Assembly: GCA_048571215.1 (NCBI GenBank)
Contig: CP182352.1
Coordinates: forward strand, 2,624,001-2,688,000
Source: Halarcobacter sp.
Lineage (GTDB): Bacteria; Campylobacterota; Campylobacteria; Campylobacterales; Arcobacteraceae
DNA: 64,000 nt
Direction: 5' to 3'
Part shown: positions 45,095 through 63,403 of the stretch, piece by piece
Layout: each line of letters begins with the position of its first letter
Position numbering within the stretch: the first letter of the stretch is position 1
Position numbers and translations under genes: made by a program
The notes under the pieces: model-generated
What the model saw: the letters and a program-made list of their open reading frames with translations, nothing else
Told to the model about the DNA's origin: nothing
The model's database searches: none

Positions 45095-45456
45095 AAAATT
45101 AGAAATTTTCTAACAGAATAATTATAAAAAAAAAGTAAACCTGTTACTATGATTTTTGATACACCTACATCTATTTTCAATAAATCATGAAAACAGTATA
45201 ATAGGAATAGATTTAAAACTAGACTTGTAGCACTCACAATGTATATTAGAAAAATCTCATGATGTTTTTTAAACTTTTTACCACTTTCAAATACAAACTT
45301 TATACTCAAATAATAATTCACAAAAGTTGCAATAATAAAAGTAAAAAATCCTACTACTAAATAATTATATGATAAAAATTTTGCAAAAATAAAAAATAAA
45401 CCTACATCAACAACTGCTGCAGTCCCACCTACGAAAAAATATTTAATAATTTTCAA
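45085..45456 (-). CDS. GtrA family lipid-linked sugar flippase
   Basis: KYFFVGG.AAVVD, NYYLS.KFVF, YNY..RKFLIF; 4 TMs. Confidence 0.92.
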   Translation of the reverse strand: MKIIKYFFVGGTAAVVDVGLFFIFAKFLSYNYLVVGFFTFIIATFVNYYLSIKFVFESGKKFKKHHEIFLIYIVSATSLVLNLFLLYCFHDLLKIDVGVSKIIVTGLLFFYNYSVRKFLIFQR

Positions 45457-45534
45457 TTATATAGCCTTTTAAATTACAAATTAATTGTATTAAAATAATA
45501 CTTATTATAAAATTATCTATTTAAAGATTATTAA

Positions 45535-47021
45535 ATGGAGCACTTATTAAAAAAATTATTTCAAGTAACTTTTTACCTTACATTATCTTTTTTATATTAT
45601 CTTTTTTAATAATCATATCATTTGGCTATACTATGCATAGTGATGGTTGGCGCCATTTAGCTATGGCATTAAATAAAAATGAAATTGGCTCATGGGATAA
45701 AATTTTAATTCATTCTCTTTACAAGAATTATGACCCTTGGTTTATTTGGCATCAATTTTTAAAAATTATTATAATTTTATTTAATAAAGATAATGTACAT
45801 ATTGTTGTAAACCTTATTGTATATTTTTCACTATCTTCTTGGTATTTTTTAACTCTTAAACAATTTGCAAAAATCAATATCTATTTTATTATATTAATCT
45901 CAATTTTTACACCAATTCTAAATGAAAGATATTTTCAACTAAGACCCGATATTGTAATTGGATTACTTATGTTATATCTAATTATAAAAAAAAATATAAT
46001 CACTTATACTATAACAATACTCTTAGCTCCATTATACTATCTCTTTTGGTTCTTTTTAGGATACCTTGCCTTAATTAAAATAGTTTTAAAAGATTATAAA
46101 AGTTTCTTTTATATTTCCATATCTATATTTATTGGATTTTTAATATATTTTCTTTATGATTATGAACAGTATATATATATTTTAAAGCTTGTATTTAGTA
46201 ATGATCAATTAACTTCAAAATTTACGGTAAATGAAAGTTTACCTGTTTTTATACCCTTAGAATTAAAAAATTATATTGGCAGTGCTTCTTTACTCTTTAT
46301 ACTATTTTCAAGTTCAGTATTCTGCTTATATAAGTTAAAAATTAAAAACAAACTGCTTAAATATTTTATTCTCTTTCTACCTTTAATGCTCATTCAAAAT
46401 AGATTTTTTGATTTGCTTCAACCTCTTTTTATCACTGCTTCAATTATAATAAGTATAAAAATCAAAAATTATGTAGATTCATATGGAATAAAAAAACCAA
46501 TTAATCATATAAAAACTTTTATTGATGAGAAAACATATTTTAGTCTTATAAAGAAAAAACATTTCCCAATTTTATTATTTATATTTTTATTAGGCATTTT
46601 TATTTATATATTTATTTCATATAAAAATAAATATACTAATCAATATCAATATATCCTTTCACATAAATTTATTGCTGAAAAAGAATTCCACAATAAACGA
46701 ATTTTTATAAACAAAATGTATACTCTAATGGATGTCTCATTCTTATTTAATCCAACAGCACAATACCTTCCTAACTTTTCTTTAGGTTGGGTTGACTATA
46801 ATACACCAAACAAAAAAATCTATTTCAAAATATTAAGTAGTTATCAAAAAGTTTCACAAAAAGAACTTATTGGTTTTTTAAAACTAAATGAGATAGATTA
46901 TTTTATTATTGATACTAAATTTAAAACTAATTTAACCGTTTCTAATAAAGAAATGAAGCATAATGGTTATAAATTTTATAAAATAATTGATGATTATATA
47001 ATATTTAAGAGAGACAATTAA
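45535..47021 (+). CDS. Putative GT-C-fold membrane glycosyltransferase, paralog 1 (5' end ambiguous: frameshift at A7 or ATT start)
   Basis: Polytopic with [29 protein letters not shown] shared with 48424-49908; frame open from 45525 but first in-frame ATG is 45633. Confidence 0.65.
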
Positions 47022-47024
47022 AAA

Positions 47025-48443
47025 ATGAAGAAAAATGTGATTATTATCGGTGCTGGCCCTGCTGGCTTAACTGCTGCCTATGAATTGCTGAAAACAAAAA
47101 ATTATAATATAACAATTTTAGAAGACTCTGAATATATAGGTGGTATTTCAAAAACCTTTAATCATAATGGAAATCGCATTGATATTGGAGGACATAGATT
47201 TTTTAGTAAAATCAAAAAAGTCAATTCTTGGTGGGATGAAGTTTTAGATGAGAATTTTTTGATAAGAAATAGAAAATCAAGAATCCTTTATGAAAGAGAT
47301 TTTTATGATTATCCTGTAACTTTAAATAAAACAACCATTAAAAATTTAGGCTTAACTAGATTTATTAAAATTGGTTTTTCATATCTAAAAGCAGCTATTT
47401 TTAAAAGAGATGAAAAAACTTTAGAAGATTTTTTTATCAATAGATTTGGGTATGAACTTTATGCTACTTTTTTTAGAGATTATACTGAAAAAGTTTGGGG
47501 TGTTCCTTGTAATAAGATAGATGCACTATTTGGACATCAAAGGATAAAAGGCTTATCTATTAGTTCTGTATTACTACACATGTTAAAAAAATCTTTTGGT
47601 AGTTTAAACTCTAAAAATATAGAAACTTCTTTAATAGAAGAGTTTAAATACCCCAAATATGGTCCTGGTCAACTTTGGGAAAATGTTTCAAAAAAGATCG
47701 AAACTCTAGGTGGAAAGATAATATTTAATGAAAAAGTTGATACATTAAAAATCAAAAAAAACCATACAATAAAAATTAAAACCCAAAACAACTCTTATGA
47801 AGCTGATTTTATCTTCTCATCTATGCCAATCAAAGATTTAATAAACACAATTAAAAAAGCTCCGTCAGATATAAAAAACTTAGCAAATAATTTAGAATAT
47901 AGAGACTTTATAACAGTAGGTCTATTACTTAAAAACTCTAAATTAGATACTTTAAAAGACAATTGGATTTATATTCAAGAATCTGATGTAAAAATAGGAA
48001 GACTTCAAATATTTAATAATTGGTCTCCTTTTTTAGTAAAAGATAAAAATACAACTTGGATAGGATTGGAATACTTTTGTAATGAAAATGATGAACTTTG
48101 GAATATGAAAGAAGAAGAGTTTATCAACTTTGCAATTTCAGAATTAGAAAAATTAGATTTAATAAAAAAAGAGTCTGTAATTGATTCTATTCAATTGAAA
48201 GTAAAAAAAGCCTATCCTTCTTATTTTGGTTCATATGATAGATTTGATGAAATCAAAAAGTATTTAAATACTATAGAAAATCTATTTTGTATAGGAAGAA
48301 ATGGTCAACATAGATACAATAATATGGATCATTCTATGATGACAAGTTTTGAAGCAGTAAAAGCTTTAGAAACAAATAGTTCAAAACAGAACCTTTGGGA
48401 TATAAATACAGAAAAAGAGTACCATGAATCAACTTCTAAATAA
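47025..48443 (+). CDS. FAD-dependent oxidoreductase, UDP-galactopyranose-mutase-like
   Basis: [38 protein letters not shown]; mutase function is inferred. Confidence 0.8.
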
Positions 48444-49908
48444 TAAATATTTTAATATTTTAATATTCCCATTATTTTTTATTTTTGGTCAAGTAGTATC
48501 AAACTTGATGAATTATACCATGTTTGATGATGGATGGAGACATCTTGCTATGGCATTTTACAAAGATGAGATGGGTAGTTGGGGAGAACTTTTTATTCAC
48601 TCTTTATATAAAGATTATGATCCTTGGTTTATGTGGCATAATCTTTTAAATCTTTTATCAACCATATCATCAAATGATAAAGTGCATATCTTAATAAATG
48701 GTTTTGTTTATGCAGCCTTATCAAGCTGGTTTTATATTGTATTTAAAAAATATTCTAAATTTGATATTTATTTAACAATATTTTTATCGTTAATGCTACC
48801 TATTTTAAACTATCGATATTTTTATCTCAGACCTGATTTATTAAGTGGTTTATTTTTATTATATTTTATGTTAATTCAAAAAAGATACCTTATAGTTTTA
48901 GTTTCTTTAATCTATATGCCATTTTATTATGTATTTTGGTTCTATTTTGGATATTTAGGAATATTAAAACTATTTTTAAAGAAATATAAAGACTTAATAC
49001 TTTTGATTATTCTTTGTATTATTGGTTTTATTTTTCATCTCTCTTATGATTTTAATGGTTTTATTGATACCACAATGAACGTATTAAACAATGATACTCT
49101 ATTGCAAGGTCAATCTGTAGGTGAAAGTAATCCAACTTTTTTCCCTCTATCAATAAAAAACTATTTTGGAACTACAATTTTATTAGTGTTTTTTCTAATG
49201 CTATCTTATCTTTTTTATATTGTATTTAAACCTAAAGATAGATTATTAGAACTTCTGATTTTTTTCGCCCCATTGATTTTATTGCAAGCTAGATTTTACG
49301 CACTTTTATATCCCTTAATCTTAGCCTATGCAGCTATTTTGACTCATAGGTTTTGCAAACTTATCTATGAAAATAGTTTAAGTTATACTATAGATTTAAT
49401 TGTAAACTTTATAAAAAACAGATCATATCTTGGAAATATTCCCAAAAAATATTATAAAACAATTTTAATAATTCTAATCTCTTCAATTTTAATTTTTACA
49501 TTTACTGATAAAATTTTCTCATATAGAAAGTTTAGTAATGATGTAAAAGATTTAAACTTTATTGCTAAAGAAGAGTTTAAAAATAAAAGGATTCTATTTA
49601 CTACAATGAATATATCTTTATATATTAGTATATACAAAAATCCAACAGCAAAATATCTTCCTAGTTGTTCTTTAGGATGGGTTGATTACAAAGATAAAAA
49701 ACTTAAAAATACTTATTTTAATTTAATAACTAATTCAGATAAACTAAATAACCAAGATTTTTTTAAGTTTTTAAAGTATAATAAAATTGATGTAATAATT
49801 GTAGATAAAGATACAAATAATCTTAAGTTTAATAATGTAGAAATAAGCGATTTTGGTTATAAGTTTTATAAATTATATAAAAATAATATAATTTTTATAA
49901 AAAATTAA
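48424..49908 (+). CDS. Putative GT-C-fold membrane glycosyltransferase, paralog 2
   Basis: TM1 followed by acidic DDGWRHL loop, LRPD, about 11 TMs, soluble C-terminal domain. Confidence 0.7.
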
Positions 49909-49956: not shown

Positions 49957-50154
49957 ATGTTAGATTTCTTAAAAAGAAGATTAAAGTCAGAAAAAGGTGC
50001 TATGGATAAAATCCTTGTTACATTGTTATTAGTTGTTATTGGTGTTGGTCTAGTTGTTGGTCTACAATCGTGGGTTGGATCTCAAAAAAATGCTTTACAA
50101 AACTCAGCAAATAATGTTATAAACAGTGCTAAAAACAACGCAAATAATAGCTAA
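49957..50154 (+). CDS. Flp-like pilin 1 (probable major pilin)
   Basis: 65 aa; basic leader ending KSEKG, about 20-residue hydrophobic helix, amphipathic tail; strong SD; heads the tad cluster. Confidence 0.85.
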   Translation: MLDFLKRRLKSEKGAMDKILVTLLLVVIGVGLVVGLQSWVGSQKNALQNSANNVINSAKNNANNS

Positions 50155-50165
50155 TATTTTAGAAA

Positions 50166-50196
50166 ATAAGTAGATAAAAATATTTTATCTACTTAT
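50166..50196 (+). terminator. Hairpin between flp1 and flp2
   Basis: ATAAGTAGATAAAA-ata-TTTTATCTACTTAT perfect 14 bp stem. Confidence 0.65.
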
Positions 50197-50203
50197 ACTA
50201 ATA

Positions 50204-50398
50204 GTGAATATGAAACTTTATATAAAACTTAAATCACAAAAAGGTGCCATGGATAAAATCCTTGTTACTTTGTTACTTACTATTGTTGCTGTTGTTGCCA
50301 TAATTGGTATTGAACAATGGTCAAGTAGTAAAAAAGATGAGTTAAAAAATCAATCAAACAATACAATAACAAAAATAAAGAATGAAATAAATCAATAA
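50204..50398 (+). CDS. Flp-like pilin 2
   Basis: LKSQKGAMDKILVTLLL is nearly identical to flp1; start GTG 50204 or ATG 50210. Confidence 0.82.
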   Translation: MNMKLYIKLKSQKGAMDKILVTLLLTIVAVVAIIGIEQWSSSKKDELKNQSNNTITKIKNEINQ

Positions 50399-50830
50399 AT
50401 GATCTTTTCTATATCATTTTATATTTTTTCACTTTTCATTTCATATATTGATTGTAAAAAACGACTTATTCCAAATACTCTTTTGCTTACATTAACTTTT
50501 TTTTTGTTAATTTTTGGTTACTTAGAAAATAAGCTACATATCTATTCTTTTCTTGTATTATTATTAATTTTACTTTTTTTTGTTATAATAGTATTGATAG
50601 TCCCAAAGATGATTTTAGGTGGTGGAGATATAAAGTACTTTATGGTTGTAGCAATATATTTGCAACCTCTTTATTTCCCATTATTTTTACTATTTTGTGG
50701 TATATTTCAATTTATTTTATTGATATATTTTCAAAACATAAAAAAAAGGCGTACAGCTCCAATGGCACCAGCTATAATTTTTGCTGTATTTATAACTGAA
50801 ATAGTTAAAAGCTTAGAAATCTACCTTTAA
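50399..50830 (+). CDS. A24 prepilin peptidase (TadV/CpaA-like)
   Basis: YIDCKKRLIPN and GGGDIK catalytic aspartates; APMAPAI; no methylase domain. Confidence 0.92.
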   Translation: MIFSISFYIFSLFISYIDCKKRLIPNTLLLTLTFFLLIFGYLENKLHIYSFLVLLLILLFFVIIVLIVPKMILGGGDIKYFMVVAIYLQPLYFPLFLLFCGIFQFILLIYFQNIKKRRTAPMAPAIIFAVFITEIVKSLEIYL

Positions 50831-50850
50831 ATAGCTCCAAGGAGTCTCTT

Positions 50851-53235
50851 ATGAAAAAAGCAATGATAGAACAGATAATGATAGGTGGTATCCTCTTTAC
50901 CATGCTAACACTATTTGTTGCAACAGTATATGATGAAAAATCTGCAAGAGATAGAACTTATGAATTAAAAACAACAGCACAAGAAGTTTCAATAGGTCTT
51001 GCTAAATACTATGAAGATCAAATGGATATGTGTACAGCTGAAAGTATTGTAACAGAGATATTAAAAAAAACTACTACAGGTCAGTTTTTACTTGATAATA
51101 ATTTGATCTCATTTCAATGGAAAAACTTAAAACCAGATAGTGATGGTGATGGTGTAGGAGATGATGGTGAACCTGATACTATTGTAACTACAATTGCACA
51201 ACATGATTATGATACTTTTTGGTATAAACTTTTTGGTTTAAATAAATTTCAAATTGGTCCTTTTACTGAAACTAAAGAAGTTCAAACACCTAAAAATGTA
51301 AATATTACGTTTGGTGGGCAAAATGCTGGTTATACAAATATGATAGGTACTTATCAATTAGACCAAAACAATTGTGTTATAAATACTCAACTTATTTTAG
51401 CAAATTCAAAGGACAATAGTAAAGTTGGTTCAAAACTTGGGAGTACAATTCAATCACCACCAACTTTTATATTTATCATGCCAAATGGATACCAAGAATT
51501 TAAAGAAAAAGGTTATACTCCCAGTGAAACTGATGTAATTAATATATCAAATCATTGTTTTGGGGCAAACACACAACCTGACTTATCTATAGGTAACACA
51601 TCATTAGGAAGCAATGGTAGAATTTATTTTGAACAAACAGAACTTAATAGTGACAAGTATGAACATATTCAAATTATTCCTGATAGTATTTGGAAAACAT
51701 ATAATGACTATGTAAATGGACAAGGAGATTTTTCGGGACAAGGAACTAAATCGTATGATGATTTTATGAGTTATTGTGAACAGATAAATTCTGACAGTGA
51801 CCCAAGTAATGATATGAATTGTAAAGACGATCCAAATGATGAATACCAATATGCAATGGAAGATTTAGATGATGGTGGAGATGAAGATTTTAATGATATT
51901 TTCCTAAATACAACAAGAATAGCTATACCAAATAAACTTAATGATTTTGAAATAGATCCTCATAATGGGAATATATCATTAACATGTAATAATAATAATA
52001 ATAATAAACCAACTATATCTATTGAAAATTGTCCTGATTCAATAGATGAAGATACAAGTTTTACTATAAATTGGACAGCTTCTGATAGTGATGGAAATGT
52101 TATAACAACTGATGCTGCTGCTGATAATGGTTCTGTGGCAATTAATGGTACTGCAGAAAATGGAACAGTCGGATATACTCCAAATACTAACTATTTTGGT
52201 CAAGATACAATTACTATGCAAACAACTGATAATAGTGATAATAGTACATTTGCATATTGTACTTTTAATGTAATAGAAGTAAATGACCTTCCTACAATAT
52301 CTGGAACACCTATAACCACTGCAGATATTGGGAAAGTTTACTCATTTATTCCTACAGCATCAGATGTAGATGGAGATCCCCTAACATTTTCAATTGAAAA
52401 TAAACCACAATGGGCTTCATTTAACTCTGCAACAGGCCAATTAATTGGTACACCTTACGATTCAGATGCAGGTACATATTCTAGTATTGTGATTAGTGTA
52501 TCAGATGGAAGAGGTGGAACAGCATCTCTTGAACCATTTAATATTTTTGTACCACACTCTGATACAAACCCTAAACTTTTAAGTAATATTCCTGACCAAA
52601 GTGTAACAGAGAAAACTACATTTTCTTATAGTACAAGTCAACATTTTGAAGATCCTAATGGAGATATATTGACATACTCTATAGATCAGTCAGAATATGC
52701 AGGAAATATAAACTCAAATACAGGTTTAATAACTATCAATATACCTGATAATACAGCAGGAGATACAATAACATTAACAGTTAGAGCAACAGATCCAGGA
52801 GGATTAACTGTTGCTGATACATTTGTATTAACAGTTAGTGCTAATACAGAATGTACAATAGATGAAACTGATGACTTTAGTGATGATAATCACGCGTGGT
52901 CGGGTGGAAATAAAACACTTTTATATCACTATAAAATAGATAGAGATACTACTGCCTACAAAACATATGATTTTGGTTCTGGTTGTAAAAATACAAATGT
53001 GTCACTATCTTTTCAATATTATACACCATATTACTGGGAAAATGCTGATAAGTTAAAGTTATATATTAACGACTCATATTCTACAGAATATTCTAGATCA
53101 AATGGTAAATGGACATCAAAATCAATAAATCTACAAACAGATTCAAGCGGTAAACTAAAAGTCGGACTAATGCCTGATTCAAATAAAAATAATGAAATTG
53201 TATATATTGATAATATAAATATTAAAAATCAATAA
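50851..53235 (+). CDS. Large TadG-like pseudopilin/adhesin with Ig/cadherin-like repeats
   Basis: Pilin-like N-terminus; DSDGDG; EDLDDGGDEDFND; ASDSDGN, ASDVDGDPLTFS..KPQWASF..TGQL.GTP and FEDPNGDILTYS repeats; C-terminal beta domain ending YIDNINI. Confidence 0.78.
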   Translation: MKKAMIEQIMIGGILFTMLTLFVATVYDEKSARDRTYELKTTAQEVSIGLAKYYEDQMDMCTAESIVTEILKKTTTGQFLLDNNLISFQWKNLKPDSDGDGVGDDGEPDTIVTTIAQHDYDTFWYKLFGLNKFQIGPFTETKEVQTPKNVNITFGGQNAGYTNMIGTYQLDQNNCVINTQLILANSKDNSKVGSKLGSTIQSPPTFIFIMPNGYQEFKEKGYTPSETDVINISNHCFGANTQPDLSIGNTSLGSNGRIYFEQTELNSDKYEHIQIIPDSIWKTYNDYVNGQGDFSGQGTKSYDDFMSYCEQINSDSDPSNDMNCKDDPNDEYQYAMEDLDDGGDEDFNDIFLNTTRIAIPNKLNDFEIDPHNGNISLTCNNNNNNKPTISIENCPDSIDEDTSFTINWTASDSDGNVITTDAAADNGSVAINGTAENGTVGYTPNTNYFGQDTITMQTTDNSDNSTFAYCTFNVIEVNDLPTISGTPITTADIGKVYSFIPTASDVDGDPLTFSIENKPQWASFNSATGQLIGTPYDSDAGTYSSIVISVSDGRGGTASLEPFNIFVPHSDTNPKLLSNIPDQSVTEKTTFSYSTSQHFEDPNGDILTYSIDQSEYAGNINSNTGLITINIPDNTAGDTITLTVRATDPGGLTVADTFVLTVSANTECTIDETDDFSDDNHAWSGGNKTLLYHYKIDRDTTAYKTYDFGSGCKNTNVSLSFQYYTPYYWENADKLKLYINDSYSTEYSRSNGKWTSKSINLQTDSSGKLKVGLMPDSNKNNEIVYIDNINIKNQ

Positions 53236-53243
53236 ATATATCG

Positions 53244-53275
53244 CTAAAGAGATATAAAGATTTATATCTCTTTAG
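53244..53275 (+). terminator. Hairpin after the adhesin gene
   Basis: CTAAAGAGATATAAA-ga-TTTATATCTCTTTAG 15 bp inverted repeat; TATAAT follows at 53316-53321. Confidence 0.7.
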
Positions 53276-53355
53276 TTAATTAAAATCAATTAAATGTAAA
53301 TTTATTTTATTTTATTATAATATAAAATTAAGTTTGTACCCAAAGAAGGAACAAA

Positions 53356-54951
53356 ATGGATTATAAAACGTACCAAACATATACAGATATACAAGGTGCC
53401 TTAGATATTAGACGAGAAAATGTTATAGAAATATTAAACTTATTTGTACTTATTTCAAATATTGGTAAACTAACTTTTTTAAAATACGATTTTAAATTTA
53501 ATAACTTTGTGTATAACTTTACAATTGATGGACATAATACAATAGATGATGATATACATTTTATGAATAACAAGTTCTCTATTGTATTAAAAGAGGGTGA
53601 TATTATCTATGGTAAAATAACCTTCAACAAAAGAATCTGGTATAGGCAAGTTTTAAAAGAGTTATTAAAAAAAGCAAAAGTATCATTAAGAAATATTTTT
53701 GAGATTGAAAAAGATCTACTTTCACAAAACACCCCATTAAACATCTATATAATAACAGATAAAAATACAATCAAATTTGCAAATAAATTACAAACAAACC
53801 TTGATATTCTACTAAATGCAGAAATAAGTATTTTGCATGATATCACAAGAATTACAGAAAAACTAAATGCAAAAAATTCTAAAAATATTATAATCTATAC
53901 TATTCAAAATGCAGAATTAATAAATGATGATAAACAAATCATTGAAAACTTTAATGAGTTTGTAATAGTGATTGGTCCAAATGACCATAACCTTTCACTT
54001 ATGTGTGGACAACTAAATATACACAGTTATGTTTCAATTAGTGAATTCTCACCTGAACATGTCAAAAACCTTATTTTAGACACAAAATATAAACTTATTA
54101 ATAAAAATAAACAAGATAATAAAATTTTTGCAATAACTGGAATCTCTGGTGGTATTGGAACAACTACAGTGTCAATGAATACAGCAGATATAATTGCTAA
54201 AAACTCTCCAAATAAAAATGTTTTATATGTGGATTTGTCAACTACAAAAGCTATTAGTAATCTATTTTTATCACAAAATCCTGTACCAAACCATTCAATT
54301 ATAGACTTAGTTAATTTTGGAGATTTTAATATCCAGAAAAATCTTGATTTGGGATTAGTTAAGGTTAGAGAAAATTTTTATGCTATCAATGGAATACAAA
54401 AACATATTGATAGAGACCTCTTAGAAAAAGATACTTTTATAGAAAAACTTTTAGATTATCTAATAAAAGCTAGTGAACATTTTAATGTAATAATTATAGA
54501 TACTGGTGCTGCTGATGCCTCAGCTCTTAAAAGTACTATTTATGATTTGGTAAATGAAATCTGGATATTAACAGAAATGACCCTACCCCATGTATCAAAA
54601 CTAAAAACCTTTTATTCACTTATGAAAAGAGCTGGACTAAAAGATAAAGTTAGTTTTATAGTAAATAGAGTTAACTCTTTAAATGAAATCTCATCTTCAG
54701 ATTTTGATTCTATCATGAATACAAGTGCAAAAGATGAAAAACTTGTATATTTAAAGATACCAAATGATTATGAAACCCTAGGAAAATGTTGGAATTACTG
54801 TGAATTGGCAAATCAAGTTTCTAGTACTTCACCTTTTGTTAAAACCATTGAAGAGATAATCTTGCAAAAAGATTTGATTGGGGATAAGATTGAAAAAACA
54901 AAAGTAAAAAAAAGTTTATTTTCATTTTTAGCAAATAAGGACAAAAGTTGA
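53356..54951 (+). CDS. TadZ/CpaE-like localisation protein (MinD/ParA fold)
   Basis: AITGISGGIGTTT..N.A, VLYVDL, IIIDTG, IVNR, IPND; immediately before tadA. Confidence 0.85.
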   Translation: MDYKTYQTYTDIQGALDIRRENVIEILNLFVLISNIGKLTFLKYDFKFNNFVYNFTIDGHNTIDDDIHFMNNKFSIVLKEGDIIYGKITFNKRIWYRQVLKELLKKAKVSLRNIFEIEKDLLSQNTPLNIYIITDKNTIKFANKLQTNLDILLNAEISILHDITRITEKLNAKNSKNIIIYTIQNAELINDDKQIIENFNEFVIVIGPNDHNLSLMCGQLNIHSYVSISEFSPEHVKNLILDTKYKLINKNKQDNKIFAITGISGGIGTTTVSMNTADIIAKNSPNKNVLYVDLSTTKAISNLFLSQNPVPNHSIIDLVNFGDFNIQKNLDLGLVKVRENFYAINGIQKHIDRDLLEKDTFIEKLLDYLIKASEHFNVIIIDTGAADASALKSTIYDLVNEIWILTEMTLPHVSKLKTFYSLMKRAGLKDKVSFIVNRVNSLNEISSSDFDSIMNTSAKDEKLVYLKIPNDYETLGKCWNYCELANQVSSTSPFVKTIEEIILQKDLIGDKIEKTKVKKSLFSFLANKDKS

Positions 54952-56549
54952 GAAACTTAAGAAATCTAATAGCCGAAGAGGAACAGAAAAAAGAGATAAA
55001 AAAACAATCTTTTAGTGTGGAAAAAGCTCAAGAAGATGAGTCTTCAAATGATTTAGCCCCTATAAAAAAGATAGAACAGTTAAAACTAAAAAGTAGACAT
55101 ACAGGTCTAAAGTTTCCAGAAATATATTTGAATAAGAAACTTTTAGATTTAGCTTATGAGATAAACGACACTTTTATGTTAAATCTAAAATCTGATAAGA
55201 AAATCACCAGAGAATCTTTAGAAGAGGTTTTACCAGAGTTTATTTTATCATTTAAGCCAGCCAAAAACCTATCTAAAGAGTACTTAGATGATATAAAAGA
55301 GTTTATTATAAACAATGTTATTGGATATGGTCCAATTACAGCCTTATTTGATATTGCAAAAGATGGGTTGAATGATGTTATTGTAAATACAAGAGAATAT
55401 ATTGATATTATATATCAAGGTAAAACAATTGAGACTCCATTTACCTTTAGAAGTGAGGATGAATTAAGAAAAGTAATTGATAAGATGCTTGCTGAAAATA
55501 ATAGGAAAATTGATGAAGCACACCCTATTATGTCAAGTAAATTAAAAGATGGTTCCAGAGTAGAGGTTCAAATACCACCTATTGCAGCTAATGATGGAAG
55601 CTGTGTAACCATAAGAAAGTTCAACGATTTACCATTGTTATTGGAGTTTTTAATAGATTCTGGTCAAATGGATTACAAAATGGCATATTTCTTATTAAAA
55701 GTTGCAAAAGGAAAATGTAATATTATCGTTTCTGGTGGTACTTCAAGTGGTAAAACTACATTTTTAAATGCCATGACTAGGTTTATTGATGAAAATGAAC
55801 AACTAATGGTTATAGAAGATACAAAAGAGATGCAACCTCAAATGCCATGTCACTCTATTAGACAATATGAAGCTAGAATGGCAAATGAAGAGGGAAAAGG
55901 TGCTATTACCTTAGACTTTTTATTACGTTCAGCACTTAGATCATCTCCAAGAAGAATTGTAGTTGGTGAGTGTAGAGGTGGGGAAATAGTTGTTATGCTT
56001 AATGCCATGAATACAGGACATCCAGGTTCAATGACTACAGTGCATGCCGATAATACAAAAGAAGCCTTAGTAAGAATTGAAAATATGTATCTAGAAGCTA
56101 GACCAACAGCTAATATCAACTTTATTAGAGCTCAAGTTGTATCTGCTATTGATATAATTATACAACTAGTAAGATTTCCTGATGGTTCAAGAAAACTAAT
56201 CACTATCTCAGAAGTTGAAAAAAGAATAGAAGACAATGCTGTAATATCTTTAAATAATATCTTTGAATTTAAAAGAGATACTAGTGATATGACAAAAACT
56301 AGAGGAAGTTTTGAGATTGTATCAACTCCTACTAGAACAGTGACTCAAATGAATATGTTTGGTGTAGATATAGATATGGGAATTTTTAATAAAGAGTTTG
56401 AGATGCCAAAATCTATGTTGATTGAAGAGTTAGAAAAAGATTTACCAACTAAAATGTGTGGTTGGAGACCTGATTATATGGATATTTTTCTAGAAAAAGA
56501 TCCTCAACTATTCCATAAATGGCCACATTTCCAAAAAGTAGAGAATTAA
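54948..56549 (+). CDS. tadA: TadA/CpaF pilus assembly ATPase
   Basis: GYGPI, LKDGSRV, TIRKF, SGGTSSGKTTFLN, IEDTKE, PRRIVVGECRGGE, MNTGHPGSMTTVHA. Confidence 0.95.
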   Translation: MRNLRNLIAEEEQKKEIKKQSFSVEKAQEDESSNDLAPIKKIEQLKLKSRHTGLKFPEIYLNKKLLDLAYEINDTFMLNLKSDKKITRESLEEVLPEFILSFKPAKNLSKEYLDDIKEFIINNVIGYGPITALFDIAKDGLNDVIVNTREYIDIIYQGKTIETPFTFRSEDELRKVIDKMLAENNRKIDEAHPIMSSKLKDGSRVEVQIPPIAANDGSCVTIRKFNDLPLLLEFLIDSGQMDYKMAYFLLKVAKGKCNIIVSGGTSSGKTTFLNAMTRFIDENEQLMVIEDTKEMQPQMPCHSIRQYEARMANEEGKGAITLDFLLRSALRSSPRRIVVGECRGGEIVVMLNAMNTGHPGSMTTVHADNTKEALVRIENMYLEARPTANINFIRAQVVSAIDIIIQLVRFPDGSRKLITISEVEKRIEDNAVISLNNIFEFKRDTSDMTKTRGSFEIVSTPTRTVTQMNMFGVDIDMGIFNKEFEMPKSMLIEELEKDLPTKMCGWRPDYMDIFLEKDPQLFHKWPHFQKVEN

Positions 56550-56552
56550 AAT

Positions 56553-57482
56553 ATGGATAATACTATCATAATACTAATATTTGCAATCCCTATATTAACT
56601 ATTTTAGTTATAGTTTTAGGGTATAAATATTATTATGAACTTGATAGAAGAAGTAAAATTATAACTTTACTAAAAAAAGATAATAATGAGATATTAGATG
56701 AAAAAAAAAGAAAAAGATTTACAAAAAAAGAGCGAAATTGGCTTGGAAAAAAACTTGCATATGCAGGTTTTCCCCATCCTATCGCAGAGATAATTTATAT
56801 TCTAACCTCGATTATTTTTGGATTCTTAGCTGCAACTTTTATAAACTTTGTAATTCCGAATCCTATAGTGTTTGCTTTAAGCTTTTTAGCTTTTTGTTTT
56901 TTCCCTTTACTTGTGTTAAAAAAAATTATAGATGGTAGGCAAGAAGATTTTAACTTTGGATTAAAAGTTATCATTGATAAAGTAACTAGTATGATGAAAA
57001 GTGGTGTAGGTTTTGAACAAGCTTTAAAAAAAGCAGTTGCTACATCAAGGTCTAAACTTGCTAAAGAGACTTTTGAAATATATTTAAATGAAAAAGATAT
57101 TATAGGTGAAGATAAAGCATTTCAAAAGATGTTTACAGTTGTAGAATCAAGGGAACTTAGAATTTTTTACCTAACAATTTCTATTGGTAGGCAATCTGGT
57201 GGTAAGTTTTCAAATACTTTAGATAAACTAAGAAAAGCTTTACATGCCCAAGGGGAAATAAAACAAGAGATAACTGCCTCAACAAAAGAGGTAAAGGTAG
57301 GAAGTTATATGATTATAGGTTTAGTTATATTTATCTATAAGATGTTAAATAGTTCTTTAGATGGAGTTTTAGATGAACACTTTTTTGGCACAAGTGAAGG
57401 GCAGATACAAATGTTTTTTATAATTTGTTGGGTTACCTTTGGGGTGTTTGTAAATAGTATGTTATCAAAAATAAAGGCATAA
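56553..57482 (+). CDS. tadB: TadB inner-membrane platform protein
   Basis: L..AG after TM1, MKSGVGFEQAL, QSGGKFSNTLDKL; T2SSF-like; follows tadA. Confidence 0.85.
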   Translation: MDNTIIILIFAIPILTILVIVLGYKYYYELDRRSKIITLLKKDNNEILDEKKRKRFTKKERNWLGKKLAYAGFPHPIAEIIYILTSIIFGFLAATFINFVIPNPIVFALSFLAFCFFPLLVLKKIIDGRQEDFNFGLKVIIDKVTSMMKSGVGFEQALKKAVATSRSKLAKETFEIYLNEKDIIGEDKAFQKMFTVVESRELRIFYLTISIGRQSGGKFSNTLDKLRKALHAQGEIKQEITASTKEVKVGSYMIIGLVIFIYKMLNSSLDGVLDEHFFGTSEGQIQMFFIICWVTFGVFVNSMLSKIKA

Positions 57483-57483
57483 A

Positions 57484-58326
57484 ATGAGTCCAATATTTTT
57501 CCTTCCAATTTTAATTGTAATTATAGGTATAATACTTTGGTATTTTTATGATACAAGAGGGACTAAAAAGAAAATCATTTTACTTTCAAAACTTGATGCC
57601 CTTGCAATTATTGACCAACAAAAAAATGTAAAAAGTAAAAAAGAGACTGAACAGAGTACTGATTTAAATCTACAGCTAATACAAGCTGGTCTTACAAAAA
57701 AAGAGTACAACGAAGGCAAGCTGGTATTTGCTTTAATAGGAATTATAATTGGAGTTTCTTTTCCTGTATTTTTTTCTACAAAAATTGGGATAATTGGTGT
57801 TGTTGTAGGGCTTATAGCAATAATATTTGGTGGGAAAATGTATCTTTCAATCTCTAAAACTGAAAGAACCGAAAAAATCAATAATGATTTAGGTGTATTT
57901 TTAGATTTGATTAATGTTATTTTAGAAGCTGGTGGCGGTTTAAAAAATGCTTTTTTTACTGTATCCACAAGAGCTCATAATATTTTAGACGAAGAGTTAT
58001 TAAAAGAAGTAGCTATTTTAGAGTATGAGATGACAAACTACTCAACAAAAAAAGCCTATGAAAACTTAAAAAAAAGAGTTGATTCAGATGATGTTTCAAA
58101 AATAGTTGATTTTTTAATTTTAAGTGAAGAAGCTGGTATTGGTGTAAAAAATATCTTTTCAACTCAAAGTGATGAGATGAGACAAGAAAAATTTTATAAA
58201 ATTAAAGGTAAAGTTAATACACTTAATATGTATTTAATGTTAGTAATATTTATCTTTGTAATTCCTGCATTAGGAGCATTTATTGTTTTTCCAATGCTTG
58301 CAGGAAAATTAGATTTTGGCATGTAA
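57484..58326 (+). CDS. tadC: TadC inner-membrane platform protein
   Basis: LIQAG, FLDLINVILEAG, SEEAG.....F..QSDEMR, FIFVIP. Confidence 0.87.
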   Translation: MSPIFFLPILIVIIGIILWYFYDTRGTKKKIILLSKLDALAIIDQQKNVKSKKETEQSTDLNLQLIQAGLTKKEYNEGKLVFALIGIIIGVSFPVFFSTKIGIIGVVVGLIAIIFGGKMYLSISKTERTEKINNDLGVFLDLINVILEAGGGLKNAFFTVSTRAHNILDEELLKEVAILEYEMTNYSTKKAYENLKKRVDSDDVSKIVDFLILSEEAGIGVKNIFSTQSDEMRQEKFYKIKGKVNTLNMYLMLVIFIFVIPALGAFIVFPMLAGKLDFGM

Positions 58327-58335
58327 AGGAATAAT

Positions 58336-59499
58336 ATGAAGTTCGATAAACAGTTAGCTATAATTTTAGTTTTAATATCACTACTATTGTCAGCAATAGG
58401 TATCTCTATATATTTTTATAATAAAAATGAGCAAACAAAAAAAGAGAATAATCAATTAGTTAAAATATATGTAGCTAAAAATAATATTAAACAAAATACT
58501 CTTATAAAAGATAAAGATATAAAAGAAACAACAGTAGCTAAACAGTATGTATTGACAAAACCTTTACTAAAACAAGAGATTATAAATAAATATGCAATAG
58601 AAAATATCTATGCAAATGAGCAATTTTTAAAAGAAAAACTTTCAGTAACACCTCAAATAAAAAGACAATTAAGTAAAATATTAGACTATAACTACTCAAG
58701 TTACAATATGTCTTTTAAATTATTTAAAAATCCAAACTATTCTATACAACCAAATGATGTAATAAAAATTATTTCAGTATATCCTATGGATTCAGAAAAA
58801 AATAACTATAAAGTTAGATATGTAGCAAAAAATATTAAAGTCTTAGGTTTCTTAAGTGATGGGAAAGAGATAGAAAAAGCAATATACAAAAAAAAGGTAA
58901 AGAGGTTTGAAAAAAAACAACAAATTGAAGAGATTGTAGATATAAAATCAGATGAAATGATTTTAGATATTAAAGAGGATGTATTATTATCTTTGATTAG
59001 TGACTTCAACAAAGGTAACCAACTTTGGATGGTTAAATCAAAAATGGAAAATGATACAAAAGATGTTAAAAAAGTAACTAAAATTGATAAATCAAAACTA
59101 AATAAAACAAAAGTTAATAAAAGTTATAAACCTAAAAAAGTATATTACCCTATAACTTGGTATAAACCAGCTACTACTTATGAAACAAAAACAGCTATGA
59201 TTACTTATGCAAATGACTCTAAGAAAACTGATATCAAAAAAGCAAAAGTTGCATCTGATTACCAAAAAGAGTGTAGTGAAACTAATAAGTTATTATTAGT
59301 AAAATCTAGAACTGTTTACCTAAGAGAAGCTCCATCAATAAGAGCAAAGATTGATAAAAAAATTGCTAAGAACTATATCTTACCTTATGTATCAATTTCT
59401 AAAATAAACCCAAATTGGTATATGATATGTGATGAGACTTATGTACAAAGAAAAGATGTAGAAGTTATAACATATGATGATTATAAAAGGTTAAAATAA
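58336..59499 (+). CDS. RcpC/CpaB-like protein with SAF domain and C-terminal SH3b-like domain
   Basis: N-terminal TM; YVAKNNIKQNTLIKDKDI (SAF), IQPNDVIKII, NIKVL; VYLREAPS....W...YV. Confidence 0.75.
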   Translation: MKFDKQLAIILVLISLLLSAIGISIYFYNKNEQTKKENNQLVKIYVAKNNIKQNTLIKDKDIKETTVAKQYVLTKPLLKQEIINKYAIENIYANEQFLKEKLSVTPQIKRQLSKILDYNYSSYNMSFKLFKNPNYSIQPNDVIKIISVYPMDSEKNNYKVRYVAKNIKVLGFLSDGKEIEKAIYKKKVKRFEKKQQIEEIVDIKSDEMILDIKEDVLLSLISDFNKGNQLWMVKSKMENDTKDVKKVTKIDKSKLNKTKVNKSYKPKKVYYPITWYKPATTYETKTAMITYANDSKKTDIKKAKVASDYQKECSETNKLLLVKSRTVYLREAPSIRAKIDKKIAKNYILPYVSISKINPNWYMICDETYVQRKDVEVITYDDYKRLK

Positions 59500-59502
59500 A
59501 AT

Positions 59503-59931
59503 ATGGAAAAAAAACAGATGAAAAAAGCAGCCATAGAAAATATTCTAATATGGATGGTACTGTTTACAAGTTTTGCTACTTTCTTTTTTTTTATAATTAA
59601 CTATGCAACCATATTAAGAGTACAGGATAATATGATTGCTATATCAGATTATGGAGCAAATTATGTTGCAGCAAATGGAATAGGTGATAATATATCTACA
59701 GATCTAAACAGAATAAAAGTAGATGGTATAAATACTATAAGTAGTGCAGATACTGGAGTTATTTGTAATGAAGTTTCAAATGTACCTTTAAACTTTACAG
59801 TAATATTCAAAACAGAAACAACAAATACTTCATATAAGTTTTATGGAGACAGTTTATCGGCAACTAAAGCAGTATTCAACCAACAAAGTGGTAATACAAT
59901 AACATGTACACTAAAAATAACCTTGAAGTAG
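59503..59931 (+). CDS. TadE-like pseudopilin
   Basis: KKAAIENILIW + hydrophobic helix, then ISDYGANYVA resembling AAREGAR; two Cys. Confidence 0.7.
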   Translation: MEKKQMKKAAIENILIWMVLFTSFATFFFFIINYATILRVQDNMIAISDYGANYVAANGIGDNISTDLNRIKVDGINTISSADTGVICNEVSNVPLNFTVIFKTETTNTSYKFYGDSLSATKAVFNQQSGNTITCTLKITLK

Positions 59932-59940
59932 GAGAGAGTA

Positions 59941-61596
59941 ATGAGATTTTTTAAACTGAAGTTAATTTTTTTATTTTTATCATTTATTACATTAAATGCT
60001 TATGATATTAATGATAAGGTAATTTACCAAAAAGATTTTGAAAATAAAACAATTTATTTACCATTAAATAACTATAGAACGTTAATATTTGAAGATAGAA
60101 TTAAAAGTATTCAATTAACAAATAGTGAAAATATAACAGCTGAGTTTGTAGATAATAAAATCAGACCTCTGCAAATGTTAAAAATTCTAGGTAAAAATAT
60201 TGGAAGTGAAAGTGCAGTAGTAATCTTAGAAAATGATAAACTAATACAAATAAACTTTAGTATCATGAAAAATTTAGACAATATTATCACCATAGTTAAA
60301 AATACTTACCCTAATTTAATTGTAGAACAAGCAAATGATACTTTAGTATTAAAAGGATATGTTAAAGATTATAAAGAAAAAGATTTAGTAATAGAGATAT
60401 TCAAAAAAGCTGGTGTTGATATAGAAAAAAATTTAGTTAATATGATTGAAACCTCTAGTCCATCAAAAATGATAAAAATTAAAATGTATGCAGTTGAAAT
60501 AAATAATGATAATGGTATAGATTTAAAGAATAATTGGACATTATCAAGCAAAAATTATATGAAAGTTAACGGAGATAATGGATATGTAAACTATCCATCA
60601 AGTTCTTATGGTAGGCCATATATAGAAAGAGATGTTTATTATGATGATGTAGTCAGTATGAGTGATCCAAACTATAATCCTGATTTAACAGGTACAATTA
60701 TACGAAAAGAGATAGAATTTTTAGTTGATAATCAGAAGAATTATCAAAATGTAAATAACCAAAGGAATGAAGGTCTTGATGATGCTTTACAAAATATCAT
60801 CTCTAGTGCAGTTACATTAACAGGAGGATTGACAGGAGTTGCTAACTATTTAGGTAAAAACTTTAATGCAGGCTTAATGCTAAACTATCTTTCAACGGAA
60901 GGAGTTGCAAATGTACTAGATGAGACTACATTGTTAACTTTAGAGAATAAAAATGCCACTTTTCACGCAGGTGGTACTATTATGATTAAAACCCAAACAA
61001 CATCAGCTGAAGGACTCCCTAACTCTACTATTGAACCTATTGATTATGGTTTACAATTAGATTTCAAAGCAAAAAATATAATGAAAAACGAATATATTGA
61101 TTTAGAGATAGATACCAAGTCTACACAAATAGATTGGACAAATCAAGTTGATGGAATACCAAGTTTTCTTGAAAAGAAAATAAAAACAAATGTATTAGCA
61201 CAAAATGGGCATACTATTGTAATTGGTGGACTAGTAAATAATGAAAATTCAAATGACATAAGTAAGATTCCTCTTTTAGGTGATATTCCTATATTAGGAT
61301 TTTTATTTAAAAGTAAATCGTTTAAAGAAGGGAAAAGTGAACTTGTATTTTTTGTAACTCCTGAAATAGTAAGTCCAGAAAATAATAATCAAGAAGAGTT
61401 ATTAAAAAAGACTTCAAAAAAGATTTTAGATACTTCAAGATACAAAAAAAGTCTATTATTTGATAATGATGAAGATAAAAAAAGTGAAAAAAAGAAAAAA
61501 GAAAAAGTCTTGCCAGAAACTACGCCTAATACTGACACTTCAACAACAAAACCTCTAAATCACAAAGAGATTGTAGATAAAATTTATGGTAGATAA
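59941..61596 (+). CDS. RcpA/CpaC secretin
   Basis: Signal peptide, Pil_N-like (ILGKNIGSE), BON-like (LVLKGYV), GHTIVIGGLV, KIPLLGDIPILGFLFKS, ELVFFVTPEIV. Confidence 0.93.
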   Translation: MRFFKLKLIFLFLSFITLNAYDINDKVIYQKDFENKTIYLPLNNYRTLIFEDRIKSIQLTNSENITAEFVDNKIRPLQMLKILGKNIGSESAVVILENDKLIQINFSIMKNLDNIITIVKNTYPNLIVEQANDTLVLKGYVKDYKEKDLVIEIFKKAGVDIEKNLVNMIETSSPSKMIKIKMYAVEINNDNGIDLKNNWTLSSKNYMKVNGDNGYVNYPSSSYGRPYIERDVYYDDVVSMSDPNYNPDLTGTIIRKEIEFLVDNQKNYQNVNNQRNEGLDDALQNIISSAVTLTGGLTGVANYLGKNFNAGLMLNYLSTEGVANVLDETTLLTLENKNATFHAGGTIMIKTQTTSAEGLPNSTIEPIDYGLQLDFKAKNIMKNEYIDLEIDTKSTQIDWTNQVDGIPSFLEKKIKTNVLAQNGHTIVIGGLVNNENSNDISKIPLLGDIPILGFLFKSKSFKEGKSELVFFVTPEIVSPENNNQEELLKKTSKKILDTSRYKKSLLFDNDEDKKSEKKKKEKVLPETTPNTDTSTTKPLNHKEIVDKIYGR

Positions 61597-61615
61597 AATC
61601 TTAGATTTTATCTAC
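61589..61615. terminator. Palindrome across the convergent secretin/dxs stop codons
   Basis: GTAGATAAAATCT-t-AGATTTTATCTAC. Confidence 0.55.
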
Positions 61616-63403
61616 TAATTGTTTAGGTAAAATACCTAAACTCTCCTCAACTAATTTTGTCTCACCATGTTGAATAAAGTCATCTTCATACTCAAAAGAG
61701 ATAAGATTTACATTAGATATATTTTTTGAATTTAAAAACTCTAATATAGCACTTCCAACTCCACCTTGCTTTTGAGAATCTGAAAAAATATACCACTTAT
61801 CATATTTTTTAGAAAGTTCTAAAAGTAATTTTTCATCTAGAGGTTTTACAAATCTTAAGTCAAGTACTGTTATATCTTCATCATGAAGCTTTTGGGTTTC
61901 TATAGCTCTACTAACCCCTGCTCCATACCCTATAAATAGCTTATTTGATGAACCTTCTCTTAATATTTCACTTTTACCCAACTCAAATGGTTTAGCTTCA
62001 TATTCTAGTTCTGCAAAAGCTCCTCTTGGATATCTTATTGCACAAGGAGAACTTGCATGATATGCAAACTCTAGTACATCTTGTAAAGTTTTGTTATCTC
62101 TTGGAGCACAAAGAATCATATTTGGTATAAATCTTAAATATGAGATATCAAAAGCCCCTTGATGTGTTTCTCCATCATTTCCAACTATTCCAGCTCTATC
62201 AATAGCAAATACAACTGGCATGTTCATCAAACAAACATCATGAATAATTTGATCAAAGCCCCTTTGTAAAAAGGTTGAATAGATTGTAATAAAAGGTTTA
62301 AATCCCTCTTTTGCCATAGCAGCCATCGAAGTTACTGCATGCTGTTCAGCTATTGCAACATCCCAAAATCTTGTAGGAAACTCTGCCATTAGCTTATCGA
62401 TCCCTGTTCCACTTGGCATAGCAGCAGTAACTCCAACTACATTATCATATTTTCTTGCAAGTTCAAGCAAAGCATCAGCAAATATAGAAGTAGCTGATTT
62501 TTTAGATGATTTTTTTTCAAATTCTCCATCATCAACATTAAATGGTCCAACCCCATGCCAATGTTCATGTTGACCTTCAGCTATCTTGTACCCTTTACCT
62601 TTAACCGTATGGGCATGGACGATTACTGGTTTTTTCATCCTTTTTGCCATCTCTAAAGTATCAATTATCTCTTCTAAATCGTGTCCATCAATTGGACCAA
62701 TATAATCTATACCCATCTCTTCAAAAATAATTCCAGGGGTGATAAGCTTCATACTCTCTTCAATTTTTTTAGCTATATATGTTGCACCCTCTGGAAGATG
62801 TTGAATTATATTTTTATCAACTCGTTCTTTAAAACTTTGATAAAATTTACCAGCTAATATTTTACTTAAATATTTAGATATAGCTCCAATAGGTTTTGCT
62901 ATAGACATCTCATTATCATTTAATACTATAACCATTGGGTATTTTCTATCACCTAACTCATTTAAAGCTTCATAAACCATCCCAGCAGTCATAGAACCAT
63001 CACCAATCATTACAACAGGAACTCTATCTTCCCCCTTAAGTTTAATAGCCTTAGCTGCGCCCACAGCAAGTGAAATAGAGGTTGAGCTATGTCCAGCTAC
63101 AAAATAATCAGCATCTGATTCTTTTGGTTTAGTAAACCCACTAAGCCCACCAAATTGTCTAATAGTTTCAAACTTATCCCATCTATCGTTTATAAGCTTA
63201 TGTGGATAACATTGGTGTGATACATCATATATAAAGGGATCTTTACTAACATCAAATACTTTATGCATAGCAACTGTTAATTCAACTGCTCCTAAAGTAG
63301 ATGAAAAGTGCCCACCTTTTCTTGAAACTACATCAATTATACGATCTCTAATATCTGAGCAAACTTGTTCTAATTCTTTTAAACTTTTAGTTTTTATTTC
63401 CAT
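61601..63403 (-). CDS. dxs: 1-deoxy-D-xylulose-5-phosphate synthase
   Basis: GGHFSSTLG, DVSHQ.YPHK, GHSSTS, GDGSMTAG..EALN, AIAEQHA, DGETHQG. Confidence 0.98.
   Translation of the reverse strand: MEIKTKSLKELEQVCSDIRDRIIDVVSRKGGHFSSTLGAVELTVAMHKVFDVSKDPFIYDVSHQCYPHKLINDRWDKFETIRQFGGLSGFTKPKESDADYFVAGHSSTSISLAVGAAKAIKLKGEDRVPVVMIGDGSMTAGMVYEALNELGDRKYPMVIVLNDNEMSIAKPIGAISKYLSKILAGKFYQSFKERVDKNIIQHLPEGATYIAKKIEESMKLITPGIIFEEMGIDYIGPIDGHDLEEIIDTLEMAKRMKKPVIVHAHTVKGKGYKIAEGQHEHWHGVGPFNVDDGEFEKKSSKKSATSIFADALLELARKYDNVVGVTAAMPSGTGIDKLMAEFPTRFWDVAIAEQHAVTSMAAMAKEGFKPFITIYSTFLQRGFDQIIHDVCLMNMPVVFAIDRAGIVGNDGETHQGAFDISYLRFIPNMILCAPRDNKTLQDVLEFAYHASSPCAIRYPRGAFAELEYEAKPFELGKSEILREGSSNKLFIGYGAGVSRAIETQKLHDEDITVLDLRFVKPLDEKLLLELSKKYDKWYIFSDSQKQGGVGSAILEFLNSKNISNVNLISFEYEDDFIQHGETKLVEESLGILPKQLVDKI

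Follow-up and report, generated by a model that had tools for sequence, protein, structure and literature searches.

A cluster of 11 co-oriented genes (49957-61596) in Halarcobacter sp. is described here. Its best reading, with a probability of roughly 0.6, is an intact operon for a Tad (type IVc) pilus of a divergent lineage within the Campylobacterota, in which the Flp motif has disappeared from the subunits. The cluster lies in a window of 64,000 nucleotides (contig CP182352.1 of assembly GCA_048571215.1, positions 2,624,001-2,688,000), to which the feature coordinates refer. It encodes two small pilins, an A24 prepilin peptidase, a large pilin, and TadZ-, TadA-, TadB-, TadC-, RcpC-, TadE- and RcpA-like proteins. 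This gene set is conserved in homologous loci, its pilins retain neither Glu5 nor Tyr6, and its assembly ATPase belongs to a clade separate from that of canonical Tad loci. Judging from the sequences, the major pilin works like Flp yet fails the Flp motif tests, and is a pilin variant within the Tad machine. The genes are as follows (an arrow marks the predicted cleavage site; lengths are in amino acids, aa).

49957-50154, + strand: Flp1, the predicted major pilin, 65 aa, with a 14-residue basic leader ending in K-G (SEKG↓AMDKIL) and neither Glu5 nor Tyr6
50204-50398, + strand: Flp2, second small pilin, 64 aa (SQKG↓AMDKIL), with a GTG start or an ATG two codons downstream
50399-50830, + strand: short A24 prepilin peptidase of the TadV/CpaA type, without methylase domain, 143 aa (PF01478, E 5.7e-12, over cut-off)
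50851-53235, + strand: large TadG-like tip pilin/adhesin, 794 aa (MKKA↓MIEQIM), with Big_9, He_PIG and Cadherin_5 over cut-off
53356-54951, + strand: TadZ/CpaE-like protein with a ParA/MinD-type C-terminal domain, 531 aa (AAA_31, E 1e-4, and minD_bact, E 4.9e-6, both sub-threshold)
54948-56549, + strand: TadA/CpaF assembly ATPase of a long-branch lineage, 533 aa (T2SSE, E 1.2e-43; best NCBIfam match TIGR03819, sub-threshold)
56553-57482, + strand: TadB platform protein, single T2SSF domain (PF00482, E 2.4e-8)
57484-58326, + strand: TadC platform protein, single T2SSF domain (PF00482, E 6e-8)
58336-59499, + strand: RcpC/CpaB-like protein in a conserved position (TIGR03177, E 4.5e-7, and SAF, E 0.004, both sub-threshold)
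59503-59931, + strand: TadE-like minor pilin, 142 aa (MKKA↓AIENIL), with an acid at +3, a landmark D/N at +24 and two invariant cysteines
59941-61596, + strand: RcpA-type secretin, 551 aa (PF00263, E 6.5e-43), just beyond the region covered by an earlier note on this DNA

The pairing of a CpaF/TadA-type ATPase with two single-domain platform proteins is a feature of Tad machines (PMC6668835), and it is found here together with genes for a TadZ-like protein, an RcpC-like protein and an RcpA secretin (the last over cut-off) within one locus. The best plasmid matches of TadA are CpaF proteins (35-41% identity). We infer the TadZ label of the protein at 53356-54951 from its sub-threshold matches and from its position before tadA in most loci. 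The short peptidase, with no methylase domain, contains the two catalytic aspartates; D18 and the G-G-G-D77 motif are invariant in all 26 aligned homologues, and its profile found no match in the PDB.

All four prepilins have Lys at −2, Gly or Ala at −1, Asp or Glu at +3 and Ile at +5, followed by a hydrophobic helix, and none has Glu5 or Tyr6. The reading of these N-termini in the earlier note, K[G/A]↓xx[D/E]xI without Glu5 or the Glu-Tyr motif of Flp, is thus borne out. A pattern fitted post hoc to the four proteins (K/R, G/A, two hydrophobic residues, D/E, any residue, a hydrophobic residue, then 16 uncharged residues) matches five of the genome's 8,669 open reading frames (ORFs) of at least 45 aa, including the four to which it was fitted, with 0-2 matches in 20 shuffles of the N-termini. 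The confinement of the pattern to one locus is not due to chance.

The motif is also kept in the homologous loci. Conservation was counted in 60 loci retrieved with TadA, in which four Flp rows are leaderless (one through masked upstream bases) and three truncated large-pilin rows were excluded. Gly or Ala occupies −1 in 50/50 leader-bearing Flp rows (always Gly), 41/41 aligned large pilins and 47/47 TadE-like proteins, and an acid occupies +3 in 49/54, 32/41 and 47/47, respectively. Lys−2 is kept in 44/50 Flp rows and 35/41 large pilins, and in only 21/47 TadE-like proteins (24/47 with Lys or Arg); Ile+5 is kept in 23/41 large pilins. Flp1 and Flp2 resemble the Flp subfamily, with its helix-only prepilins of 50-80 aa, in size and leader (64-65 aa, basic leader ending in Gly, presumed helical), and in all 54 Flp rows the places of Glu5 and Tyr6 are taken by I/V and L/I. 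The Flp1 leader is conserved in the family. Codons at the invariant positions vary synonymously, in rows that were chosen by the motif, and the Gly−1 codon is GGT in 41/43 compared with 152/214 in genome-wide K-G-A contexts, with the qualification that related rows are not independent.

All 60 loci come from titled Campylobacterota taxa and mostly have the same gene order, the closest being those of Halarcobacter and Arcobacter (91%). The pilin profile matches 62 of 184 genomes of the Arcobacteraceae, in 14 of 22 genera. Of 401 genomes sampled evenly across the phylum, nine carry this TadA type (the genome studied here included; the others at 55-76% identity) and eight carry another TadA at 41-42% identity, in canonical loci with Glu5/Tyr6 Flp pilins. 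In the TadA tree, the lineage is set off from the canonical loci as a single long-branch clade (49 of 67 rows, support 100; 22 of 30 rows, 100/100), the 67-row tree having left out 14 close or partial rows. Within a 38-row subclade centered on the Arcobacteraceae (support 96; 83/96), each of the three subunit types carries the +3 acid, with few large-pilin exceptions. In the remaining 11 rows (support 89; 84/72, weak), the large pilins are acid-free, and so are the major pilins, of the short form, wherever one was seen; the TadE-like proteins of these rows either have the acid (Sulfurospirillum-like) or Gln+5 and no acid (family f7). The loss of Glu5 and Tyr6 is therefore common to the whole lineage, and the +3 acid in all subunits marks one subclade. 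The canonical loci of the 401-genome sample fall in two other families of the order, and the phylum holds two Tad lineages on separate branches.

Two forms of the major pilin can be distinguished. Among 236 short proteins, 180 have the long form G-A-M-D-K-I, 17 the short form G-M-S-G-V-L, which is one residue shorter and nearly always lacks the acid, 29 begin directly with Met and 10 belong to none of these types. A single change accounts for the two forms; its direction is unsure, as is the root. The suggestion of the earlier note that the whole system co-evolved holds in the Arcobacteraceae-centered subclade but does not extend to the sister clades, with their shorter, acid-free major pilins. 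The major-pilin profile, run against 1.84 billion representatives, retrieved 122 matches, one of which, the tail match P0239, yielded no relatives in a homologue search. Viral contigs hold five TadA relatives only, too few to place the lineage. Some loci differ in their pilin complement: extra pilins after rcpA, or opposite-strand or tandem large pilins, occur in four (L018:11480-11674, L029:8838-9818, L039:14364-15347 and L023), and three operons (L028, L047 and L097, partly the same record) have no large pilin. In family f7 (L084:5947, L085 and L086:5662-7722), the large pilin is split into a pilin of 91-97 aa and a separate protein of 550-590 aa, whose apparent ordinary signal peptide suggests a non-pilin tip adhesin.

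Comparison with eight canonical Tad loci of the Helicobacter/Campylobacter type, from host-associated Campylobacterales (L088-L095), allowed the N-terminal register to be examined. Canonical Flp reads G↓VTAIEY in 8/8, and the canonical TadE/F controls (n=15, picked by a Glu5 pattern) have Glu5 in 15/15. Acids lie at +5 and +22 in all 15 of the latter, compared to +3 and +24 in 46/47 TadE-like proteins of this family; an acid is also found at +24 in 33/41 large pilins. In this family the two acids are four residues further apart, which lengthens the intervening helix by as much. This spacing bears on the model of the earlier note, in which the whole system had shifted by two residues, the +3 acid was the old Glu5, processing was of archaeal type, and the pilins formed a new subclass. 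That model now seems unlikely. It would account for the +3 acid in all three subunit types of the 38-row subclade, and hhalign does pair the acid of the TadE-like proteins with canonical Glu5 (probability 67%, E 5e-5), but only through a three-residue gap, and a rigid two-residue shift predicts the downstream acid at +20 rather than at the observed +24. Furthermore, the major pilins of the sister clades are acid-free, and the TadE-like proteins of family f7 have Gln+5 and no acid. Flp profiles of the family and of the canonical loci align over the leader only and, on this evidence, do not establish descent of the +3 acid from Glu5. The absence of Glu5 from the large pilin, which is TadG-like, carries little weight because tip pilins commonly lack it anyway (PilK-type pilins, and the canonical loci here). 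As for archaeal-type processing, the features of a class III signal of the FlaFind/PibD type, a basic residue at −2 and Gly or Ala at −1 with Glu5 not required (rule given in PMC3387779), are present in all four window proteins, but Lys or Arg at −2 is also found in 17/23 canonical control pilins of the same order. The pseudopilins of a type II secretion-like locus in the same genome (1885032-1894245), which have canonical Glu5, read MKK[A/S]↓FxLxE, so that Lys−2 is not diagnostic of the archaeal type.

All cut sites are predictions. Prepilin leaders are described as ending in Gly or Ala (PMC10191384). In the minor pilins the cut is fixed at G/A−1, because this residue is invariant and is followed by a large hydrophobic residue in most (35/47 TadE-like proteins); the short form of the major pilin likewise has mostly such a residue after Gly. 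A cut two residues earlier, which would restore the acid to +5, is very unlikely and was rejected: it would place E/Q/D/N (Flp) or K/R/V/Y (other subunits) at −1, and G/A/S in none of 124 homologues (46/46 Flp excluded). Such a cut would keep the Glu5 rule, and the leaderless copies described below show that a leader is not always present, which might also suit uncut proteins that serve as adhesins anchored in the membrane or as pseudopilins in a short secretion piston. Given the co-inheritance of an intact peptidase and the conservation of the Flp1 leader, we regard all of these as highly improbable.

A cut one residue later is a more serious alternative for the major pilin. In the long form, the residue after Gly is Ala in 167, Ser in 8, Gly in 4 and Leu in 1 of 180 sequences, and this preference resembles that of a −1 position, so that the cut may sit after K-G-A. 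The acid would then be at +2, the place of Thr or Ser2, the register would be that of the short form and of archaeal pilins, and the agreement of the +3 acids would be partly coincidence. The long-form Met aligns with +1 of the short form, and the Asp with its Ser/Asn+2; the M/I/L/V and S/N that follow Gly in the short form match the long-form letters from Met and the place of the Asp. Thr2 of the Caulobacter pilus is described as bonding to the N-terminal nitrogen of the adjacent subunit (PMC10710030), and a Sulfolobus islandicus pilin is reported to be cut K-A↓L-S (PMC11178852). Leaderless second copies of the pilin also begin at this Met:

L004:3245-3391, L009:3391-3531, L020:3303-3461, L169, L179 and L183: leaderless second pilins, four of them with a clear AGGAG-type site

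In these copies, no start codon separates the Met of A-M-D from an in-frame stop further upstream, and translation is from that Met. They account for 3/59 matches in the genome loci (a fourth was left out for masked bases) and 3/99 in 80 metagenome loci (one false call was left out, and two more are probable), always behind a leader-bearing copy. On the other hand, starts at Met are to be expected at any in-frame ATG, Flp is usually cut at K-G↓ (8/8 controls), and canonical Flp also begins with a small residue, Ala in Caulobacter (PMC11067988). With a cut after Gly, the three protein types align gap-free with the acid at +3, and Ala+1 occurs in 12/47 TadE-like proteins. The leaderless copies and the small residue after Gly thus favor GA↓MD; the gap-free alignment with the minor pilins and the customary K-G↓ site favor G↓AMD. 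From the sequences we prefer the latter by about two to one, with a mature Flp1 N-terminus of A-M-D-K-I (or M-D-K-I), and consider the same machine with the K-G-A↓ cut possible but doubtful. The flp1 gene is preceded by an AGGAG sequence.

The profile of the family resembles archaeal adhesion pilins. Its best match in the PDB is the Ignicoccus Iho670 pilin (3j1r, E 5.6e-4; 5kyh, E 0.003), followed by a Geobacter pilin (E 0.0095) and 8fk7 (E 0.043), described as the Pyrobaculum calidifontis pilus (PMC10334743); three of these four are archaeal, the third in rank is a bacterial type IVa pilin, and no Flp pilin is among the matches listed at E up to 10. The 122 profile matches include four 'flagellin-like' or weakly Pilin_N archaeal-type proteins. 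The match depends on the residue order of the helix (0/40 column shuffles reach the score), and eight bacterial Flp or Flp-like controls score at most 8 bits compared with 35-42 bits for the archaeal-type targets. The major pilin could accordingly be imagined to descend from archaeal adhesion pilins, by a swap or as a retained ancestral state, and to run on a bacterial Tad machine; we consider this improbable. The scores are low and limited to a 25-residue hydrophobic helix, the targets were chosen by the same profile, and four other tail matches, two of them weakly Flp1_like, score like the archaeal ones. The short form, expected to be closest, has no significant PDB match (best pilins 8fjs, E 0.49, and 3j1r, E 3.9). 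The mature protein of about 50 aa has no room for the Ig-like globular domain of archaeal adhesion pilins, and the machine is bacterial Tad, which left the archaea once and early (PMC6668835). Loss of Glu5 by itself gives such helices an archaeal look, and convergence after this loss is the simpler reading. A Tad lineage that polymerizes an acquired or retained archaeal-type helix, needs neither Glu5 nor Tyr6, and accepts leaderless pilins without the peptidase is likewise unlikely; if true, it would constitute a pilin subtype of its own, linking Tad pili with those of archaea.

The pilins escape current models, as the earlier note had anticipated for the Flp_Fap, TadE and Tad hidden Markov models, none of which gave an over-threshold match. 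Flp_Fap (PF04964) matched nothing anywhere in the genome at E 0.001, the Caulobacter control being positive, and is absent for 37 family members among the families listed (best 25 of 30). Flp1 reaches 14.8 bits against Pfam Tad (cut-off 22.3). The TadE-like protein of the window matches no family, and weak Tad and TadE matches occur in 8/34 and 4/34 members. The PilFind motif [GAS]-x4-[DE] (as given in PMC3244431), applied as a motif rather than through the program, is missing at all four predicted sites, its one stray match being at residue 32 of Flp2. Two observations count against complete non-detection: 'Flp pilus assembly pilin Flp' is the source name of one of 120 homologues among the matches listed, and a Sulfurospirillum epibiont has been noted to have a Tad pilus locus, of whichever type (PMC10470745). 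Most named members are filed as 'hypothetical protein', with homologues recorded under named species such as Arcobacter arenosus. In the open-access literature, supplements excluded, we found no paper on these pilins, and the texts of PMC9235176 and PMC11680825 do not mention them. The earlier proposal of a new pilin subclass is supported insofar as the pilins form an unnamed family, but they represent a variant within Tad and not a new class of machine.

The model of the TadE-like protein consists of a 52-residue helix and four strands. In the Atlas, it matches a cluster that is 86% TadE with a template modeling score of 0.62, and it can be superposed onto solved pilins with only Z 3.6-3.8 and a root-mean-square deviation of 3.4-4.9 for 74-113 aligned residues. 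Fold searches with the model did not rise above background: Foldseek gave no match at E < 0.001, and the best Z (5.6) is to an unrelated fold, so that a pilin fold is neither shown nor excluded. The large pilin is modeled with a 56-residue helix (residues 2-57; predicted local distance difference test score 84.7), followed by Ig/cadherin-like repeats and a C-terminal β-sandwich with cadherin-like fold matches. Its Asp at +24 is invariant in the alignment. The length of the large pilin ranges from 314 to 846 aa among loci, which fits an exchangeable tip adhesin.

Based on these observations and on established Tad biology (PMC10191384, PMC4471445), we propose that the four prepilins would enter the inner membrane, their basic leaders on the cytoplasmic side, and would be cut by the adjacent A24 peptidase after the conserved Gly or Ala. 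TadA, TadB and TadC would then polymerize the short Flp1 helix through the RcpA secretin, and the TadE-like and large pilins would prime and cap the tip, where the large pilin may carry an exchangeable adhesive arm. The role is likely surface attachment. Since Glu5 and Tyr6 are missing, a different packing of the core is required, for which archaeal pili offer the simplest model; the filament would most likely be held by hydrophobic helix packing, as in archaeal adhesion pili without Glu5. Packing is described as alike in Tad and archaeal pili (PMC10710030). In Caulobacter, Tyr6 is reported to set the register in addition to the Thr2 contact (PMC10710030), and another Tad map places Glu5 and Tyr6 within a hydrogen-bond network (PMC11067988). 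The +3 acid, fixed in every subunit of the subclade that includes the window, probably supplies a polar contact to the N-terminus of the neighbor, and would be a replacement, in a remodeled helix, for the Thr2/Glu5/Tyr6 contact of Caulobacter rather than a rigid shift. It may be dispensable in the sister clades, which would manage with Ser or Asn.

Several points weigh against the operon being that of a divergent Tad pilus. The lineage is known here from genes alone, cleavage, expression and the pilus itself being predictions, and the role assigned to the +3 acid is purely conjectural. One metatranscriptome contains a fraction of 0.22 of the sequence words, which speaks neither for nor against expression. 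Glu5 and Tyr6 are treated as needed for Tad assembly (PMC11067988). Ala, Ser or Gly follows the Gly in 179/180 long-form major pilins, as would suit a later cut. A PilD-like A24 peptidase of 263 aa encoded elsewhere in the genome (G000:C1:3518327-3518680) could process these prepilins; the short peptidase of Myxococcus is described as serving only some tips (PMC12075869). Neither TadD nor RcpB was recognized in the operon, whose 11 ORFs were the only part of the genome searched for them; both are accessory in the published Tad model (PMC6668835).

Among known systems, the operon is closest in plan to Tad/Flp (Caulobacter Cpa/PilA, Aggregatibacter Flp1-TadV and the canonical loci above), with a short all-helical major pilin, a basic leader, a short A24 peptidase, and TadZ-TadA-TadB-TadC, RcpC, RcpA, TadE-like and large TadG-like pilins in one locus. 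It differs in lacking the Thr2/Glu5/Tyr6 motif, in having an acid at +3 or none, in the minor-pilin landmark at +24 instead of +22, in its single TadE-like gene and unrecognized TadD and RcpB, and in its long-branch TadA, with S-S-P-R-R for M-R-P-D-R. Archaeal adhesion pilins (Iho670, 3j1r/5kyh; Pyrobaculum, 8fk7) share the K-G/A leader, the absence of Glu5, the hydrophobic order and a Trp near +24/+25, whereas here there is no Ig-like domain, the machine is a bacterial Tad with a secretin, and the similarity is weak and confined to the helix. The DUF4320-type Tad-like loci (L109, L112, L116, L122 and L127) are language-model look-alikes of the TadE-like protein, with Asp for Glu in G-E-G-Y-I-D; their small pilin we take to be DUF6133. 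They differ in an acid at +5 from the first Gly and in a far more distant TadA (E 1e-18 to 1e-24) in a separate clade, and were rejected as a source, their TadA being more distant than ordinary CpaF. The Kil (Tad) system of Myxococcus also has a short peptidase, extra Flp-like minor pilins and a large tip pilin whose exposed domain varies; in contrast, its KilP is reported to keep the G/xxxxE motif, and predation is not indicated here from the genes (PMC12075869 for the Kil features).

The surroundings of the operon and some details of its sequence are also of note. Just 5′ of flp1 (45085-49908) lie a GtrA-like gene, an FAD oxidoreductase gene and genes for two paralogous (40% identical) unannotated polytopic membrane proteins, homologues of which flank 16/60 related loci; this region is possibly a pilin glycosylation cassette. 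Long hairpins occur in the gap between the large pilin gene and tadZ (53244-53275) and at the end of rcpA (61587-61617), and the former may separate a transcript for the pilins from one for the machine. No Rfam family reaches the gathering score within 42000-64000, and thus no riboswitch is present there; promoter-like sites are at chance level (126 vs 121.7). TadA (54948-56549) shows lineage-specific motif changes, L-R-S-S-P-R-R-I for L-R-M-R-P-D-R-I and E-D-T-K-E-M for E-D-A-A-E-L, and a C-terminal extension that is missing from canonical loci.

Absolute conservation has been claimed for Glu5 across bacterial type IV pili and for Tyr6 across Tad pili as a whole (PMC10710030), and their hydrogen-bond network has been proposed as a universal mechanism of Tad assembly (PMC11067988). 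Here, an apparently intact and conserved Tad lineage, present in about one-third of the genomes of its family, has neither residue, and exposes a blind spot of pilin finders. Its two natural forms, with an acid near the N-terminus or with none, together with homologues in named species, make the function of Glu5 testable, and also the question of why archaea do without it. The lineage, though a variant of a known machine, thus offers a natural test of the purpose of Glu5 and Tyr6.

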